From a plasmid, in the sequence record OW969666.1: a stretch of 64,000 nt of DNA; one strand, written 5' to 3'. This document shows, in pieces, positions 25,206 through 34,282 of this stretch (positions within the stretch are counted from its first letter, which is position 1; the number at the start of each line of letters is the position of its first letter). The notes beneath the pieces were generated by a model, which saw only the letters and a list, made by a program, of their open reading frames with translations, ran no database searches and had not been told where the DNA came from. The position numbers and the translations under genes were made by a program.

Positions 25206-26673
25206 CAAACCGTCCAGACGACCTTTCTCACTCGCTCTGCGGCTGACCTTTTTTATCAGCCTGTCCACAATACTGGCGTTTATCGCCTTCACCTGGTTTA
25301 TGCTGCATTCTGTTGATAAGCATTTTGCCGAGCAGGATGTCAGCGATCTGCAACAAATCAGCACCACACTAAACCGTATCCTGCAGTCTCCGGTTGATCC
25401 GGATGAAAAAAAAGTAAGCAAAATAAAGGAATCGATCGCCAGCTACCGTAACGTTGCTCTTTTGCTCCTCAATCCCCGGGGAGAGGTGCTGTACAGCTCT
25501 GTGCAGGGGGCTGCTTTACGCTCTGCTGTGAATTCAGCCGATTTTAGCGAGCACAGCCGTGCACGTGATGTCTTTCTCTGGACGGTGGAGGATCCTGCGA
25601 GAGCGATGGATACCGGGTCCGGAATGAAGATGGAAACATACAGAATTATCGCCTCATCTGGTCAGGCGATATTTCAGGGCAAACAGCAGAACTATGTCAT
25701 GCTGACTGGCCTCTCCATTAATTTCCATCTCCATTACCTCGATGCGCTGAAAAAAAATCTGATTGCGATCGCTGTCGTGATAAGTCTGCTAATTGTTCTG
25801 ATCATTCGCATTGCTGTCCGTCAGGGGCACCTGCCCCTTCGTAATGTCAGCAATGCCATTAAAAACATCACCTCCGAGAATCTTGATGCGCGGCTGGAAC
25901 CGACACGCGTTCCCATTGAGCTGGAGCAGCTGGTTATCTCGTTCAATCATATGATTGGAAAGATTGAGGATGTTTTTACCCGCCAGGCCAATTTCTCTGC
26001 CGATATCGCGCACGAGATCAGAACCCCCATCACCAATCTGGTGACGCAGACTGAAATCGCTCTGAGTCAGGATCGAACCCAGAAGGAACTTGAGGATGTC
26101 CTCTATTCCAGCCTTGAAGAGTATAACCGGATGACAAAAATGGTCAGCGACATGCTGTTCCTGGCCCAGGCGGACAATAATCAGCTGATACCTGACAGGG
26201 TTCGGTTTGACCTCAGAGCAGAAGTCATGAAAGTCTTCGAGTTTTTCGAAGCCTGGGCCGAAGAACGAAATATCACGCTCAAATTTAACGGGATGCCCTG
26301 CCTGGTTGAGGGAGATCCACAAATGTTCAGAAGAGCGATCAATAATCTGTTATCCAATGCCCTGCGTTATACCCCAGAGGGACAGGCAATCACCGTCTCA
26401 ATAAGAGAGCAGGAGAGCTTTTTTGACCTTGTGATTGAAAATCCGGGGAAACCAATCCCTGAAGAGCATTTATCAAAGCTGTTTGATCGCTTTTATCGGG
26501 TGGATCCGTCCAGACAACGAAAAGGAGAAGGCAGCGGCATCGGCCTTGCGATTGTGAAGTCAATCGTGGAAGCACATCACGGAAGAGTGCAGGTGGAATC
26601 GGACGTACACTCAACGCGTTTTATCTTATCCGTGCCCAGACTGGAGAAAATGATTCCGGAAACCCAATACTGA
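25198..26673 (+). CDS. silS: Sensor kinase SilS
   Basis: 491 aa with TM helices, HAMP and the HisKA motif AHEIRTP. It overlaps the silR stop. Confidence 0.9.
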
Positions 26674-27355: not shown

Positions 27356-27500
27356 CGGCGAGGGAAGTATCTGTGCTGTCCTTATTTCCTTGATAGATTT
27401 TTCCGTAACCGGATATATGGCAACATCTTTGCCCCCTACAGGGGCATTTTTATCAGATTCTGCTACAGTTAACGGGTATCAACTTAAAAGGATATTTTTT

Positions 27501-27851
27501 ATGAAAGCCAGAAACACTTTATTTGCAGTATTATTGTTATCCCTGCCAGCGATTTCAGCAGAACATTCAGAAATGAAAATGACTGATATGTCTACCTCGG
27601 CTTCGTCACAGGAATATATGGCTGGCATGAAAGACATGCATGACAAAATGATGGCTGCCGTAAATGAATCCGATCCCGACAAGGCTTTTGCGAAAGGCAT
27701 GGTAGCGCACCATGAAGGGGCAATAGCAATGGCTGAGACCGAGCTAAAATACGGAAAAGATCCGGAAATGAGAAAGCTCGCACAGGACATCATTAAAGCT
27801 CAAAAAGGTGAAATTGAGCAGATGAATAAATGGCTTGATAGTCAAAAGTAA
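27501..27851 (+). CDS. DUF305-family periplasmic protein (copper-resistance associated)
   Basis: 116 aa with a signal peptide and the DUF305-like region MVAHHEGAIAMA...AQKGEIEQM. Confidence 0.7.
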   Translation: MKARNTLFAVLLLSLPAISAEHSEMKMTDMSTSASSQEYMAGMKDMHDKMMAAVNESDPDKAFAKGMVAHHEGAIAMAETELKYGKDPEMRKLAQDIIKAQKGEIEQMNKWLDSQK

Positions 27852-27927
27852 ACATTGCAGAAATGTCACGACAAGCGTGATTTTACATCGCTCCTGGGCA
27901 CGGGAGTCTGTTAATCTTTATATAATT

Positions 27928-27958
27928 CAAACCCGATTAATTTCGGGTTTTGTATTTT
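27928..27958 (+). terminator. Hairpin terminator between the DUF305 gene and the HNH gene
   Basis: aaacccgattaatttcgggttt followed by a T-rich tract. Confidence 0.45.
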
Positions 27959-28036
27959 CACGCGCCAAATCGGTAACTACCAGGAAATAATGACCGTCTC
28001 TGCAAGCAAGGTAAAAGCATTACTATTGAATAACAC

Positions 28037-28945
28037 TCACCTGTTCTCACCTTTATAATAGCGAATCAAATCCTCCAGAGATATATCGATAGCTACCTGT
28101 TTTAATAACTCCTTTCTCTCATTATATATTTTCTCAAGCATTTCTTCATATCCCTGGCCGAGGTGAATTTGCTTATGGCAATTGCAACACAGCGATATTA
28201 TATTTTCTTCGACGTCAAGCGAAGTGTTAAAATCATCCTGCATGGACATAGGTACAATGTGATGAGGTTCAGTATAATTCAGGGAAGAGTTACGCCTTCT
28301 GAAGGTTGGGTGTTCACCATCGACTTCACATCTGTAACCTGCTTTGTTCAGTGCATTTTTCGAAACCCCTTTATTTCTTGGGTACGAGACGCCATTTTTT
28401 ACTTCAATTGCATGTTTCTTTGGTTTAGCTTCCCCTGTATATTCAAATGCCTGGGCGATATCAAATGTATTATTCGCTTCCATGGCGTTGATCAACTCAT
28501 CGTCTGAGTAATACTCATTGATGGTTATTTCTTCCACACCAAATAAATCCAGCTCTTTAATTGCCTGAACAAGTTCATCACGAATAGTCCATAAGTATCT
28601 TTTTGGTTTTTCACCGGTTTCTTTACTCTTCATGACTGTAATGAATTTTGTGCCAGGTGCTATATTCCCGATCCCTTTAACTTCAAACCTTCCTAGCTCT
28701 TTTTGAACTCTACCACCGAGCCCGTTAATAACGCCATTAGCACTCATACTGTGCTGGTCGTACTTTTTGCCTATATCAAAACATGTGCAGGAATGATTTG
28801 GTTCAATATACCATTTTTTTAACGCCTCAATACTTTTAGAGTCAAAAACCTTTTCATTCATTAACAGATTTTTCCATTCTTCCACACTGATATCAATGTC
28901 GCAGACGTACTCCCCGTCAATTACCTGGCAAATCTTATAGATCAC
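28037..28945 (-). CDS. HNH endonuclease-domain protein with an uncharacterised N-terminal domain
   Basis: 302 aa. The C-terminal HNH motif is EPHHIVP...CCNCHKQIH, and the N-terminal ~200 aa has no recognised family. Confidence 0.75.
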   Translation of the reverse strand: MIYKICQVIDGEYVCDIDISVEEWKNLLMNEKVFDSKSIEALKKWYIEPNHSCTCFDIGKKYDQHSMSANGVINGLGGRVQKELGRFEVKGIGNIAPGTKFITVMKSKETGEKPKRYLWTIRDELVQAIKELDLFGVEEITINEYYSDDELINAMEANNTFDIAQAFEYTGEAKPKKHAIEVKNGVSYPRNKGVSKNALNKAGYRCEVDGEHPTFRRRNSSLNYTEPHHIVPMSMQDDFNTSLDVEENIISLCCNCHKQIHLGQGYEEMLEKIYNERKELLKQVAIDISLEDLIRYYKGENR

Positions 28946-29491
28946 GATCTATCCCCCCTGTAATAAAAAAATCATCACAATACACAGTCCGTTACCCGGT
29001 ATGAGTGCAGTCAGGTAACATCTGCAGTATGCCATATTTTCAGCTCTGGTAAATCAGAAAAACCATTGTCATGGCATCTCAAATTAAATTATTTCTGAAA
29101 TTACTAAACTTCAGCATCCATCACCGACTATACCATGTTTTCTGTCTGGCCCAGATATAATGGACAGTTAGTTCCGCTCATTATCCGCGATGATGAAATA
29201 GTCTCCGGCCAACAAAACCGTACAATGTTTTCAATGACCTGCACTTTTAACTGAACAAGTGAAAAACCATTCAGAACTTAAAATGTTAACAATAATTTCA
29301 TGCTGGCGTGTATGCCACATTATTCACATTTTGCGAATGAAAATAACTGGCATAATTGAATTTAATGATAATGTTACATATTGTCAGCCAGGTTCCGGAA
29401 AGCGAGAACCGGAACCGCACCTGTCCAGCCGGTATTTCCGTCGATGACCCTCGCTTTTTACTGATTTGTGCCCGACTGAGAAATCGGTAAC

Positions 29492-30514
29492 TCAGTTTCG
29501 GAATCGGCGCAGATGAGTTTCCGGAACAAAATAAATGTTGCCGCGCGCCCGTGAGCATGCCACGTACAGCCTGTTACGGGACGATGGTGGAAGGGCTGCC
29601 AGTTCCTGACGGGTCAGAAGCTTCCAGTGGGCGGGCCCCATCACAATGCAGACATCCTGAAAGTGATCGAGCCCTTTGCTGACGCCCCAGTTCATGGAAT
29701 AGCAGCCGTAACGGTGATGCTCACGATAGAAGAGCTTAATCACCGTATTATCGGCGTGCAGGGCGGCTGTGCGCTCTGCATCTGTGATCGTTTCAATCAG
29801 GGTGGCATGTATCCCATGGGCAGCGATACGGATGTTCAGTTGCCCGGTGATAAACTCGCACACCGAAGTCGAGCAACGCCATGTTCGGTTGAGCGTGTTA
29901 CGGTCAACCATGAAACCTGCTGCGGCGAAGCGGGCCTCATATCGCGTAATGTCATCGTGCAGCGCTGAATTAACGTTGCCGTCACGGCTTGTATCAAAGG
30001 TATGCTGATAAAAATCACCGCAACACAGCACAGTGATTTCCGCACGGCAGAGCTCCAGCAGAAAATCAAAGTCATGTCCGGCAAAGTCCTGGACTTCATC
30101 GACAAGCAGTTCATCGTAGTAACGGGCAAGCCGGGTACGGATATCCGGCAGCAGCCCCCGGGCTGTCAGCAAGTGTGCGAGCCTCCGGTGATATAGCCGT
30201 CCGGCGGGATCCTGATAATGCCGGGCATTCGTGCGCGGTATTCCGGGAGGGGGTCGGTCGAAGCTCAGGCCACGCGATGCCAGCCGCTCCTGCAGGAAAG
30301 GCCGGAAGCAAAAACCGTGCAGAAACTCAAACCAGGTCATCACCCTGATCCCGTCCGGGATAAAGCCAAAACGTCTGATAATCTGCGCCCGCAGATGCGC
30401 TTCATTATTCACGGTGAAGGTCAGGATCAGCGTTCTCCGGTCCTCACTCAACCGCCGTATCAGCAGCGTGGTCTTGCCCGAGCCGGCAACCGCAAATATC
30501 ACTCTCTTATCCAT
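29492..30514 (-). CDS. Minimal UvrD/Rep-like SF1 helicase core (GajB-like partner of an OLD nuclease)
   Basis: 340 aa with Walker A AGSGKTT at residues 10–16, DEVQDF (motif II), GDFYQ (motif III), WRCS (motif IV-like) and VACSRARG (motif VI). It lacks the 1B/2B accessory domains. Confidence 0.7.
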   Translation of the reverse strand: MDKRVIFAVAGSGKTTLLIRRLSEDRRTLILTFTVNNEAHLRAQIIRRFGFIPDGIRVMTWFEFLHGFCFRPFLQERLASRGLSFDRPPPGIPRTNARHYQDPAGRLYHRRLAHLLTARGLLPDIRTRLARYYDELLVDEVQDFAGHDFDFLLELCRAEITVLCCGDFYQHTFDTSRDGNVNSALHDDITRYEARFAAAGFMVDRNTLNRTWRCSTSVCEFITGQLNIRIAAHGIHATLIETITDAERTAALHADNTVIKLFYREHHRYGCYSMNWGVSKGLDHFQDVCIVMGPAHWKLLTRQELAALPPSSRNRLYVACSRARGNIYFVPETHLRRFRN

Positions 30515-30747
30515 GCCAGTGCCTCCTGAATATAATCAGGTACCGTCAGCTCTTCGGCGTGCAGCTGTAACAGCCGGAATGCTGCTTCTGCCTTATTGGC
30601 CAGCATGTATTCCTGCACCGTGAGTGTTCGGCGGGTTCCGCGGAAAAGCGCGTCACACAGAGCAGCGTTATCCTGATACAGGCAGATTTCAAATGTGGAT
30701 CGGGTGTTGTCGCGATCAGCAAATGCCCGGGTGCGGGAACACAGCAC
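30499..30747 (-). pseudogene. C-terminal TOPRIM segment of the OLD-family gene in an alternative frame (apparent frameshift at ~30790–30850)
   Basis: 82-aa ORF in a different minus-strand frame. It contains AFADRDNT (TOPRIM DxD motif) and a conserved-looking C-terminus, and overlaps the helicase start by 16 bp. Confidence 0.5.
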
Positions 30748-32060
30748 GTCAGCATAGCGTTCATCGCAGTTTTGCTGATAGTTTCCGTCATTATCACGAA
30801 GGGCCGCGACGCGATTTTCCAGAAGACGGGCAGTTCAAGATAACGACGGAAACTCGTTCCGCCGATAGCGATGATGTGAACCCCGTCATCCTCCGGCGCC
30901 CTGCCATACAGGCGGCGATAAAAGGCCTCAATCAGAATAAACTCAGCATCCCCCTCCACGAGCAGTGCACGTCTGGCTAGCGCAAATTCCAGCACGTTAT
31001 TATCCGGTGCTTTCATGAAGAAGGCGGCAGTCTCAGCGGAAAGTTCATTCATCAGTACCGGCCGGGTAGATCCGAGGAGGATTGCCTTACGTAGATCGAG
31101 GCGGGAGGAGATATGGCTGCTGTGTGTGGCAATAAACACCTGCGTCTGCCGTTCAGTGGCAAGCTGATTAACCAGCCTCTTCATACTGACATGGCTGAGA
31201 TGATTCTCCGGCTCCTCAAGCAACAGTGCGTGGAGCTCTCCCTGCTGCTGATGCCGCTGCAGCGCAAACTCTGTTTTGATGAAGCACTGCCTTCCTTTTC
31301 CACGGTGACGAATGGAAATACCGTCCTCGGTAATGTCCAGATTCGCCTCAAGACCTGATTTAGCACCGGAACGCACGCCAAACTGATACGTTTCCAGCGT
31401 GTCGTTTATGGCTGACAGATGCCGGGTGCAGAAGAGCATTTTCTGTTGCCGGTAACTGTTTTCAAGCCGGTAACGATCGGCCACCGGCACATTGACGCTG
31501 TAAACTGTGCGCGTATATTCCTGTGCGGCGTGCTCGTTATCGATGCGTGCACTGTCTAACAGCAGATGGCGCAGATAGCGTCTGAAGCCGGCGAAATGAC
31601 CACCGGAGAAGGTGCTGAACCGCACGGAATAGTATTCATAGGGAAAATTATCGGGATCCTGCTGTAGTACATTGTGAATATCCTGACCGTATTCCTCCGT
31701 CATTGGTGCAATGCGCATTCTGAGTCCATCCGCATCGATACCCGCCAGATTTTGCCTGCCGTTCAGGTCAGGATCTCCCCCATTACTCAGGAAAACGTCA
31801 GCTGTCAGCACGGGTAACAGCTCGGCGCGGCGCTCACCTTCCTGAAAATGCCTGACTGCTGACTGGGACAGGAGCGATTCCACACCCAATGCCTCGACCC
31901 GGTGCCGGCTGTCACTCAGCACAAGGTCAAGGGCCAGCAGAATCGTGCTTTTCCCGGACTCGTTGTCACCGACCAGAATGTTACGGTCATGAGTGAAGCG
32001 CAGATCCAGTTCCGGAAACTTTTTAAAGTTTTGCAGCATAAGCCGCGTGATCAGAGGCAT
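30546..32060 (-). CDS. OLD-family ABC-ATPase / TOPRIM nuclease (class-2 OLD, GajA-like). Its 3' end reads out of frame (see 30499–30747).
   Basis: N-terminal P-loop GDNESGKST, an ABC signature/D-loop region, then the TOPRIM glutamate LLVEGDAEFILIEAF. The last ~50 residues of the ORF look like frame-shifted junk. Confidence 0.75.
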   Translation of the reverse strand: MPLITRLMLQNFKKFPELDLRFTHDRNILVGDNESGKSTILLALDLVLSDSRHRVEALGVESLLSQSAVRHFQEGERRAELLPVLTADVFLSNGGDPDLNGRQNLAGIDADGLRMRIAPMTEEYGQDIHNVLQQDPDNFPYEYYSVRFSTFSGGHFAGFRRYLRHLLLDSARIDNEHAAQEYTRTVYSVNVPVADRYRLENSYRQQKMLFCTRHLSAINDTLETYQFGVRSGAKSGLEANLDITEDGISIRHRGKGRQCFIKTEFALQRHQQQGELHALLLEEPENHLSHVSMKRLVNQLATERQTQVFIATHSSHISSRLDLRKAILLGSTRPVLMNELSAETAAFFMKAPDNNVLEFALARRALLVEGDAEFILIEAFYRRLYGRAPEDDGVHIIAIGGTSFRRYLELPVFWKIASRPFVIMTETISKTAMNAMLTCCVPAPGHLLIATTPDPHLKSACIRITLLCVTRFSAEPAEHSRCRNTCWPIRQKQHSGCYSCTPKS

Positions 32061-32133
32061 CTTTTATTCCTTTATATACCGCTGACTGAAAGAGTGTCCG
32101 GCAGCGCCAGACCGCCTGTTTTGTATTACAGCG

Positions 32134-32544
32134 TTATCTTACCCAGTCTTCCAGCACCAGACCCGGCACCCGCTCAAATTCCCGCACATTATTGGTCACC
32201 AGCACGGCACCGGCGGCGATGGCGTGCCCGGCGATCGCCGTGTCGTTCGGCCCGATCGGCGTGCCGGCGAGGCGCAGCGCCACCTTAATTTCCGTGGTCG
32301 CGTCCACCGCGGTACGGTCCCAGGGCAGGATGGCATCAAGGCGGGCAGCGAAGGCGTCAGCCAGCTTCTGTGCGGCTGGTCCTGCTTCCTGTGATGCCAG
32401 TGACACTTCGGCCCAGGTGATGGCCGAAACCACAATGCGGTGACCCCGCAGCACCGCCTGCTCCAGGCGCTTCAGGACGGCTTCCGGCTGCTCGCGCATG
32501 ATGAACGAGCAGATGTTGGTGTCGAGCATATACATTTTGTTCAC
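32134..32544 (-). CDS. vapC: PIN-domain toxin VapC
   Basis: MLDTNICSF...PIN acidic residues. Overlaps vapB by 4 bp. Confidence 0.8.
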   Translation of the reverse strand: MNKMYMLDTNICSFIMREQPEAVLKRLEQAVLRGHRIVVSAITWAEVSLASQEAGPAAQKLADAFAARLDAILPWDRTAVDATTEIKVALRLAGTPIGPNDTAIAGHAIAAGAVLVTNNVREFERVPGLVLEDWVR

Positions 32545-32771
32545 AGGTTAACCCGTCCTTCGTCGCTGACAACGTCCCCGCGCTCAGCCATAAAGTCCGG
32601 GTCAGCTTTTTCGAGCTCCAGGAACGAGCCCCAGGTCGGCCGGACGGGACGCAGAATAATGCTGTCCCCTTCCCGGACGATCTCCAGCTCGCTCACCCCC
32701 TCAAAATCCAGATCGCGGGGCAGGCGGATGGCGCGGTTGTTGCCGTTTTTGAAAATAGATACGGTTCTCAT
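32541..32771 (-). CDS. vapB: AbrB/SpoVT-type antitoxin VapB
   Basis: 76 aa, 'KNGNNRAIRLPRDL' swapped-hairpin motif. Confidence 0.75.
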   Translation of the reverse strand: MRTVSIFKNGNNRAIRLPRDLDFEGVSELEIVREGDSIILRPVRPTWGSFLELEKADPDFMAERGDVVSDEGRVNL

Positions 32772-32779
32772 GATTTTTC

Positions 32780-32965
32780 TCCCGGGTAAGTATGGATATG
32801 TGATGCATATCCGGAATGAGGTTCATTGCACCGGGTGTGTGCATATGTTCAGTATAGGCAGATGTTCGGCATATGTATATATAGAGCATATGCAGATGGT
32901 GAGTATATGCGTATGCCATACCTATGCAGATGTCAGGCATATGGATATGCTTTGCATATCCTTTC
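32780..32965. repeat. Cluster of GCATATG / GCAGATG heptamer repeats bounded by ~20-bp direct repeats, immediately upstream of vapBC
   Basis: TATGGATATG-N3-GCATATCC occurs at ~32787 and ~32941. There are at least 8 copies of GCA(T/G)ATG between them. Confidence 0.45.
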
Positions 32966-33306
32966 TTTTCACTTTTCCCGGTCAGATCCGAAAAAAGGTA
33001 GTTCCGGATCACGGCGATTTTCTGCGCTGATTTGTGAAACGAAAATTAAAAATGTGCTACACTTTAAGTAGTTAGATAACTTTCACCCTCTCCGCATCAG
33101 ACCGACCTGACGAGTAAATCCTGTTAATCTGTTCATCATCGCTTCCGAAAACTTTGCTATTATGAATTTTTCGGAAGTCAAAAAGAGTGAGATCCGGTAA
33201 TTGCGGGCGGTGACTGTTATTCTGCTAATCACTGCGGGCGGGCAACGGAATGTTCTGCTGGCGATGATAAATAAATAGAACTAATAGATATTAAATAATA
33301 AGGAAG

Positions 33307-33603
33307 TTGATTATGAATATGAAAATTACACTGAGTGTTTTATTTGAGGCTCTCATAATCCTTGGGCATGACAGAGTCTGGATGGAAGAATCGGAGTTTG
33401 AGCACATATACGGATACGGCTGCTACCGTGAGATACACACTTGGGACGATCGCACAGTTGCCTGGTGGGATGATGCTGATGACACATGGTATCTGTCCAC
33501 AGAAGTCGATGTGATAACTCCTTTCCTTGGCCCTCTCCCAAAGAAAGAAGGAGAGCTCTCCGAGGAAAAATGCTTCCAGTTAATGACTCTTGGTCGCTAC
33601 TGA
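33307..33603 (+). CDS. Hypothetical protein
   Basis: 98-aa ORF, Trp/Asp-rich, with a good SD (aaggaag). Confidence 0.4.
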   Translation: MIMNMKITLSVLFEALIILGHDRVWMEESEFEHIYGYGCYREIHTWDDRTVAWWDDADDTWYLSTEVDVITPFLGPLPKKEGELSEEKCFQLMTLGRY

Positions 33604-33733
33604 TAGCCGACAGCAGCATTTAATGAGTGGTCGGCTGGACACCCTCTGGCGGCCACATGTCACTCGATAGTGTAGTCCGGCGGGATTTCTCCCTGAAGAT
33701 GATCCAGACATTAACGTAAAGGATACAGGAACG

Positions 33734-34264
33734 ATGTGTAAACTGACCGGTTTTATAATGGGGCTGACGATCCTGCTGGGTGTGACTGCACGGGATGCAG
33801 GGGCGGCAACGCTCAGTGAAATGCGGATGGTTAATGCCAGTCAGAAACCCGGGATGGTGATTATCTGCAGCCGGACCTCGGAGATTCCGCAGAAAGGTGA
33901 ATCCCCCGTTCGTATAGAAAGTCTCCTCAGGGGCGTGGTACTGCAGAACGACGGTGATCGCATGATGTTTGACGTGACCTATACACAGCGAAACGCTGAA
34001 GAGAGTATTCCTTTTCGTACGGAAAAATACCGGCTGACCACTGAGCTGGAAGCCACCCGCCAGAAAATGGCCATCGATCCTGAGACGATAGAACTATCGC
34101 TTCCGCGTGCCCGCGGTCTTGAAGAAACTTTTCTCGCGGGGATGAAAGCAAGCCCGGTTTCGTTTGAAGATTACACCAATTACCGTGTCAAATCTGCTAC
34201 CGAGTATCTGATCCTGCCGGGTCCGGCATCCCCGGATGCACCGGTGATGCACTGCACACTCTAA
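33734..34264 (+). CDS. Hypothetical secreted protein
   Basis: 176 aa with signal-peptide-like MGLTILLGVTARDAGAA. Confidence 0.45.
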   Translation: MCKLTGFIMGLTILLGVTARDAGAATLSEMRMVNASQKPGMVIICSRTSEIPQKGESPVRIESLLRGVVLQNDGDRMMFDVTYTQRNAEESIPFRTEKYRLTTELEATRQKMAIDPETIELSLPRARGLEETFLAGMKASPVSFEDYTNYRVKSATEYLILPGPASPDAPVMHCTL

Positions 34265-34282
34265 TGACAATGGTGACATAAC

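Follow-up and report, generated by a model that had tools for sequence, protein, structure and literature searches.

A compact Gabija pair with a frameshifted gajA and a probably independent McrA-like HNH gene in plasmid record OW969666.1

Gabija is a two-gene class 2 OLD system in which the OLD-family protein GajA is paired with the helicase-like protein GajB. The class 2 OLD Toprim domain has a helical insert, and a helicase partner belongs to the class by definition (PMC10568477). The mechanism of the Bacillus cereus system (BcGabija) and its requirement for Toprim residues have been described (PMC10781630, PMC8136825, PMC10568477), these residues being required for defence in both Bacillus and Escherichia coli Gabija (PMC10781630). 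BcGajB, with 494 amino acids (aa), has its Nacc (1B) segment at residues 73–155 and its Cacc (2B) segment at residues 314–416 (PMC10681800). On E. coli plasmids, Gabija has been reported to lie together with tmn and VapBC (Wu et al., bioRxiv 10.1101/2022.08.21.504612). The locus compared with these systems here is carried by the plasmid of sequence record OW969666.1, within a stretch of 64,000 nt (the window) in which all positions are counted. Three co-oriented open reading frames (ORFs) lie on the minus strand at 28037–28945 (302 aa), 29492–30514 (340 aa) and 30546–32060 (504 aa), flanked by silE and DUF305 on one side and by vapBC on the other. The original prediction had described these as three co-oriented genes between the sil island and vapBC, and its coordinates and domain calls hold. 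We consider, with a probability of roughly 0.85, that the locus is two independent things, namely a two-gene compact Gabija whose gajA is frameshifted and a stand-alone McrA-like HNH gene of the sil island. The homology, gene architecture, co-occurrence statistics and frameshift described below were established directly in the analysis.

The first gene of the pair, gajA (30499–32060, minus strand), would encode a compact nuclease of OLD class 2 that combines an ABC ATPase with a Toprim domain. Its native product has 520 aa; in the window a 1-bp deletion after codon 410 leaves the ORF of 504 aa, which matches Pfam AAA_15, AAA_21, SMC_N and OLD-like_TOPRIM. The intact protein matches the PADLOC GajA model PDLC00102 at E 5e-101, from position 3 to position 531 of 532. 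In an alignment of 21 GajA sequences the ABC ATPase residues K37, E282/E283 and H313, which answer to the Walker A, Walker B/D-loop and H-loop elements, are invariant, as are E458 and K490. When a profile of the Toprim region only was compared with the PDB, class 2 OLDs were the only proteins matched (XccOLD at 1.9e-6, BpOLD at 2e-5 and BcGajA at 4.7e-5), with E369 paired with BcGajA E379 and D423/D425 with BcGajA D432/D434. A C-terminal PxYIxxAxxxIR motif of the compact GajA is common to XccOLD and BpOLD. In the alignment, 81 aa separate the DxD from this motif in the compact GajA, vs ~120 aa for XccOLD and BpOLD, and on this basis the helical insert of class 2 (~50 aa) may be reduced in its Toprim domain.

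The second gene, gajB (29492–30514, minus strand), would encode a compact SF1A (UvrD-like) helicase or nucleoside triphosphatase (NTPase) of 340 aa, and its first 16 nt are shared with the end of the native gajA. It matches Pfam UvrD-helicase and Viral_helicase1 and has the Walker A AGSGKT at residue 10, DEVQD at 139, GDFYQH at 166 and VACSRARG at 318. PADLOC GajB models of 365–369 positions match at E 1.6e-46 and 9e-42, the former match being with PDLC00148 (369 positions) over residues 1–330. The AlphaFold model, with a predicted local distance difference test score (pLDDT) of 88.9 and a predicted template modelling score (pTM) of 0.84, resembles UvrD, Rep and PcrA in Foldseek comparisons (TMq 0.65), as well as the Gabija GajB 8tk1_F (E 3.6e-10). 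Both RecA-like cores are predicted in this model, together with a ~70-aa helical insert at residues 61–132 that is 1B-like. The four SF1A subdomains 1A/1B/2A/2B are apparently not all present, as the model has no segment long enough for 2B; the four-subdomain layout is a property of the studied BcGajB and not a formal criterion for Gabija. The retained 1B-like insert matters because the GajA–GajB contacts in BcGabija run through 1B. The helicase had been described beforehand as unusually small and as lacking both 1B and 2B; there is indeed no room for 2B, but the 1B-like insert at 61–132 is kept and the size is the norm of the family.

The shortness of the helicase, which is ~150 aa shorter than BcGajB (494 aa; PMC10681800), and the frameshift that gajA does carry in the window would both suit a reading in which a canonical Gabija is decaying at this locus and the helicase gene is a degraded gajB that has lost its 3' end. 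However, the length distribution across the family refutes it. More than 2,400 homologues were found and, among the best 120, nearly all have 339–346 aa, while lengths at genome loci are 334–353 aa. A 22-sequence alignment is conserved from Walker A through VACSRARG to the C-terminal end, the piece that is absent is internal (the 2B domain) and not the 3' end, and PADLOC has GajB models of 365–369 positions. We regard such a truncation as almost certainly wrong. The 340-aa helicase is of normal size for a large family (334–353 aa), neither truncated nor unusual.

The pairing of the two genes was surveyed by scanning one genome per species, which returned 80 loci, 72 of them evaluable for lengths and overlap. 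The loci span Proteobacteria, Bacteroidota, Firmicutes, Acidobacteriota, Verrucomicrobiota, Nitrospirota, Spirochaetes and other phyla. A GajA homologue lies immediately upstream of the helicase in all 80, with its full length in every case where neither contig nor gene is cut short. GajA has 517–524 aa in 70 of the 72 evaluable loci (range 497–528) and GajB has 334–353 aa in 71, the remaining copy being truncated. The gajA stop and the gajB start overlap by exactly 16 nt in every evaluable locus (72/72), which in the window corresponds to 30499–30514, and this strict conservation suggests translational coupling of gajA and gajB. For an overlap length to be fixed in this way across many phyla is unusual. 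No flanking gene family occurs in more than 9 of the 80 loci; vapBC is not conserved beside gajAB there and was rejected as a conserved partner outside the Enterobacterales plasmids. The recurrent neighbours are type I restriction–modification (RM) methylase and specificity genes, type ISP enzymes, integrases and recombinases, and the neighbourhood is a defence-island or mobile-element setting.

As both its context and its active-site residues agree with this placement, the gajA–gajB pair is, judged from sequence, a compact and distant Gabija / class 2 OLD subtype already modelled in PADLOC. The original prediction had recognized an OLD plus helicase as the Gabija (class 2 OLD) architecture in reduced form, which is borne out by the PADLOC matches of the two proteins (E 5e-101 and 1.6e-46). 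The profile hidden Markov model comparisons, of a kind that it had proposed, gave matches to PADLOC GajA and GajB and to Pfam AAA_15, OLD-like_TOPRIM, UvrD-helicase and HNH. The novelty that it attached to a reduced variant does not stand, for the reduced form is very common and PADLOC has dedicated GajA and GajB models for it.

The copy of gajA in the window differs from this conserved form. Against PDLC00102 (532 positions), residues 4–412 of the 504-aa ORF match profile positions 3–425, and positions 458–531 match an ORF in another frame at 30499–30747. In a three-frame translation the protein runs to ...SFRRYLEL in one frame and onward as ...RLLENRVAALRDNDGNYQ... in another. When the window is aligned over 16.7 kb with the plasmid pC44_001 (NZ_CP042567.1; L001), a single C is missing in the window at 30830/30831, being one C of a CC pair (site 30829–30832; plus strand GACGGGC^CAGTTC, the gene lying on the minus strand), and the coding strand reads CTG CCC GT in place of CTG GCC CGT. 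A G/T difference in silS at 26251 is the sole other change over these 16.7 kb. The intact gajA of pC44_001 encodes 520 aa (WP_032662171.1) and ends at the window equivalent of 30499, with the 16-nt overlap with the helicase start, and the 504-aa ORF is this protein to residue 410, followed by 94 residues out of frame. The ORF at 30546–32060 had been assigned correctly to the ABC ATPase/TOPRIM family, but it is not the native gene, the frameshift having been overlooked.

Many Enterobacter IncFIB/IncFII plasmids are otherwise identical to the window, and their match spans one extra base. This base is present in 1,624 of the 1,625 PLSDB records that hold the 70-nt segment around the frameshift, and programmed frameshifting is ruled out by the in-frame gene in these 1,624 plasmids. 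Exactly this 504-aa product is encoded by three public contigs, including one from an independent read-set assembly, so that the frameshift most likely marks a true pseudogene allele in the minority rather than an isolated error; a sequencing artefact is unlikely, though it retains some small probability. The Toprim active site is incomplete in the window gene, the DxD (D423/D425) and all downstream residues being gone from the 504-aa product. Because the Bacillus and E. coli Gabija systems need their Toprim residues, the nuclease of the window copy, and hence the system, is most likely inactive as written, and it would be mistaken to count the frameshifted allele among active defence systems.

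The third ORF (28037–28945, minus strand) is a stand-alone gene for a McrA-like HNH endonuclease of 302 aa, in which a linker joins a conserved N-terminal domain (~135 aa) to the HNH domain at the C-terminus. It had been suggested that the three genes might form one undescribed three-component defence system, in which the OLD/mini-helicase pair would have the HNH nuclease as its effector or partner. In the window and in 252 PLSDB plasmids the three genes lie side by side in one orientation, and one of the 80 distant loci has an HNH-domain ORF just upstream of the compact gajA. The match at this locus, in a Prevotellaceae metagenome-assembled genome (L053, 3901–4296), is weak, with 29% identity in the HNH domain only (E 8e-4). 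On the other side, 79 of the 80 loci are without an HNH homologue and there is no conserved third gene, and each partner occurs without the other. In PLSDB, gajAB is found in 1,581 plasmids (counted at ≥80% coverage), while 396 plasmids have the HNH gene and 252 the joint 4.7-kb block, so that ~1,300 plasmids have gajAB without the joint block; the HNH gene in turn occurs on plasmids without gajAB. An AT-rich spacer of 546 bp (28946–29491) separates the genes, and the GC content falls by 16–17 points, from 0.54 in gajA and 0.56 in gajB to 0.399 in the spacer and 0.385 in the HNH gene. The homology blocks break here as well: the spacer holds the junction of the sil/HNH block, which in blastn comparisons with two other loci (L082 and L086) extends to ~29482, and the gajAB–vapBC block, which extends from ~29296. 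A three-component system is accordingly very improbable. Among the findings that the original prediction had itself named as fatal to its proposal, a 3'-truncated gajB was not encountered in a family of 334–353 aa, and an HNH gene unlinked to the pair was, as the neighbourhood survey that it had called for places an HNH homologue at 1 of 80 loci. The preferred reading therefore has the HNH gene outside the Gabija module, at the edge of the silver/copper resistance island.

The HNH gene is found beside silE/DUF305 without gajAB on Salmonella, Leclercia and Raoultella plasmids and on Enterobacter contigs. On an Aeromonas chromosome its neighbours are cueP on one side and a Cus-like resistance–nodulation–division (RND) cluster on the other, again without gajAB, and homologues in Clostridium, at ~60% identity, stand alone. 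In all proteobacterial contexts examined (L082–L084 and L088–L093) the gene is at the edge of a copper/silver efflux cluster, in the order silE, DUF305, HNH on Enterobacteriaceae plasmids and cueP, HNH, small ORF, Cus-like RND cluster on the Aeromonas chromosome, and the linkage spans genera and replicon types. In Enterobacter plasmids with an 80%-identical HNH gene (L088–L091, 1–5446), the side that gajAB would occupy holds other genes instead, which encode an 893-aa SMC_N/AAA protein, a CAP12-PCTIR TIR-domain protein and a KAP NTPase. This site beside the sil island may be a hotspot of variable defence genes.

The identity of the HNH protein is clearest at its C-terminus. Pfam HNH matches residues 223–261, and the motifs quoted in the original prediction, HHIVP and CCNCHKQIH, are present at residues 228 and 253. 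The C-terminal 90 aa (residues 186–276 of the HNH protein) match EcoKMcrA (6ghc) in a phmmer search at E 3.6e-7, and C206, H228/H229, N248, C253, C256, H257 and H261 are conserved in the family, in agreement with a ββα-metal nuclease that has zinc-binding cysteines. The only PADLOC match of the protein is to the type IV methyl-directed restriction model, and some sources name the family '5-methylcytosine-specific restriction protein A'. In the predicted structure (pLDDT 78.9) the best Foldseek match is EcoKMcrA (E 2.5e-5), followed by ScoMcrA. The structure prediction proposed for the N-terminal domain gave a confident fold (pLDDT ~85–95) with weak winged-helix matches only and none to the McrA reader domain. 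Conservation in the family extends over the whole protein and is high in the N-terminal domain. No methyltransferase lies beside the gene in the window or in seven other contexts, and the literature yielded no paper describing this HNH gene of the sil island. The protein is probably a type IV restriction enzyme, McrA-like and encoded by a solitary gene, whose N-terminal domain would be a different kind of reader, and its activity would depend on modification of the DNA.

On the other side of the junction, gajAB travels with a toxin–antitoxin pair. The genes vapC (32134–32544) and vapB (32541–32771) occupy 32134–32771 on the minus strand, 73 bp upstream of gajA, and are annotated in pC44_001. 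The pair gajAB lies in an IncFIB backbone in the order vapBC, gajAB, two hypothetical genes, integrase, RepB and sopA. vapBC accompanies gajAB on plasmids of the IncF type: in E. coli pNMEC-O75A and Klebsiella pneumoniae pKP58-1 the order is vapB–vapC–gajA–gajB followed by IS1, and there is no HNH gene. Thus the view that the locus is embedded in a heavy-metal island has to be revised, as gajAB sits not inside that island but at the junction where the vapBC–gajAB backbone block abuts the sil/HNH block. In pNMEC-O75A a full-length Tmn (PADLOC, 2224 bits) lies directly beside vapBC–gajAB (L085, 8529–12323), an arrangement found on one plasmid; the equivalent spot in the window (~33300–34270) holds only two small hypothetical ORFs and the integrase. 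Just upstream of vapB, before the next ORFs, there is a tandem array of at least six degenerate 17-bp units (TGCAGATG..CATA-like) at 32840–32958, which could be an operator, an iteron or a centromere-like array.

The function of the pair is predicted largely by analogy. GajA's ABC ATPase domain is thought to be a sensor of nucleotide levels or DNA, and its Toprim domain would nick or cleave invading DNA using E369, D423/D425, E458 and K490. GajB would be a minimal SF1A helicase/NTPase, with two RecA-like cores, a small 1B-like insert and no 2B, which, as in B. cereus Gabija, would bind GajA and act on the DNA ends made by it. With these putative nuclease and NTPase activities and this presumed complex, gajAB on the IncFIB backbone beside vapBC probably protects the host cell against phages or competing mobile DNA.

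A different emphasis is also conceivable, with plasmid maintenance or inter-plasmid competition, and not phage defence, as the main role of vapBC–gajAB, which would cleave plasmid DNA that is incoming or competing. It is in keeping with the fixed position of gajAB next to vapBC, close to the RepFIB replicon, on plasmids of Enterobacter, E. coli and Klebsiella, with its presence on at least 1,581 plasmids, with the ability of the PA14 Gabija to act on plasmid and transduced DNA, and with the proposal that Gabija and tmn on plasmids help to maintain these when other mobile elements compete with them (Wu et al., bioRxiv 10.1101/2022.08.21.504612). However, outside the Enterobacterales plasmids the pair is chromosomal, without vapBC, and near RM genes and integrases as in ordinary defence islands. 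We consider a role mainly in maintenance unlikely, and the two roles are not mutually exclusive.

Several points weigh against carrying the Gabija assignment over to a shared mechanism and to loss of function in the window. Full-length searches against the PDB fail to reach BcGajA or BcGajB at E ≤ 0.01; those with GajA reach TsOLD, PtuA and AriA, and PcrA is the only protein reached with the helicase profile. The analogy in mechanism is therefore founded on distant homology. The literature gave no experimental test of any member of the compact subfamily, and with no 2B and ~40 aa fewer between the DxD and the C-terminal motif, assembly and activation may be different. The truncated, ATPase-only GajA of the window could also keep some role, its loss of function being something that we infer. 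A more far-reaching proposal, which we regard as possible but doubtful, is that the compact GajA/GajB is a mechanistically distinct Gabija subtype, with assembly and activation unlike the Bacillus model, and that, separately, the HNH protein is a type IV enzyme with a new N-terminal reader that hitch-hikes specifically with copper/silver efflux islands.

Other signals in the region were few. An Rfam scan of 27500–33500 gave nothing credible, the spacer at 28946–29491 having no Rfam match. In a promoter and terminator scan no signal rose above background. NCBIfam gives no family-level name for any of the three proteins.

The discovery value of the locus is small, as the pair belongs to a common Gabija subtype that was already catalogued, with the HNH gene as a bystander. 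What remains of interest is that the Gabija variant most frequent on plasmids is structurally unlike the studied ones. Found on at least 1,581 PLSDB plasmids, it differs from the variants that were studied biochemically or tested in E. coli, and mechanistic conclusions drawn from those may not transfer to it. Annotation pipelines name the two genes only 'AAA family ATPase' and 'helicase UvrD', under which a very widespread plasmid defence module in clinical Enterobacterales goes unlabelled.

Compared with the known systems, the HNH protein is nearest to EcoKMcrA (6GHC) and ScoMcrA (5ZMM), with which it shares the spacing of the C-terminal HNH motif, the two-domain layout and a similar length. 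As in those cases, its gene has no adjacent methyltransferase. Unlike McrA, its N-terminal ~135 aa have no detectable similarity to the 5-methylcytosine reader domain and are weakly winged-helix-like. Among plasmid Gabija systems, pNMEC-O75A, an E. coli plasmid with the combination that Wu et al. report, has Tmn, vapBC and the same compact gajAB at 90% DNA identity, whereas the window is without tmn. The Gabija cloned by Wu et al. from ECOR49 is of the long type (GajA E379/D495/K528, GajB K27 and D183, N-terminus MRIETVYIKGL); its assignment to the compact type was rejected on the mutant list and the primer sequence.

For the Toprim region of the compact GajA, the best PDB sequence matches are BpOLD and XccOLD (PDB 6NK8 and 6NJV), from which it differs in having ~40 aa less between the DxD and the C-terminal motif. 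The compact GajA is ~58 aa shorter than the GajA of B. cereus VD045 Gabija (GajA 578 aa, GajB 494 aa; PDB 8SM3, 8TK0 and 8JQ9), and the compact GajB is ~150 aa shorter than its counterpart, with no 2B (Cacc) and a reduced 1B (PMC10681800). The same two co-oriented genes are nevertheless present in both systems, an OLD-family ABC ATPase with a Toprim nuclease followed by an SF1A UvrD-like protein, and both correspond to PADLOC GajA and GajB; the Toprim glutamate and the DxD align, and the helicase of each has a Walker A motif and a DExQD box.

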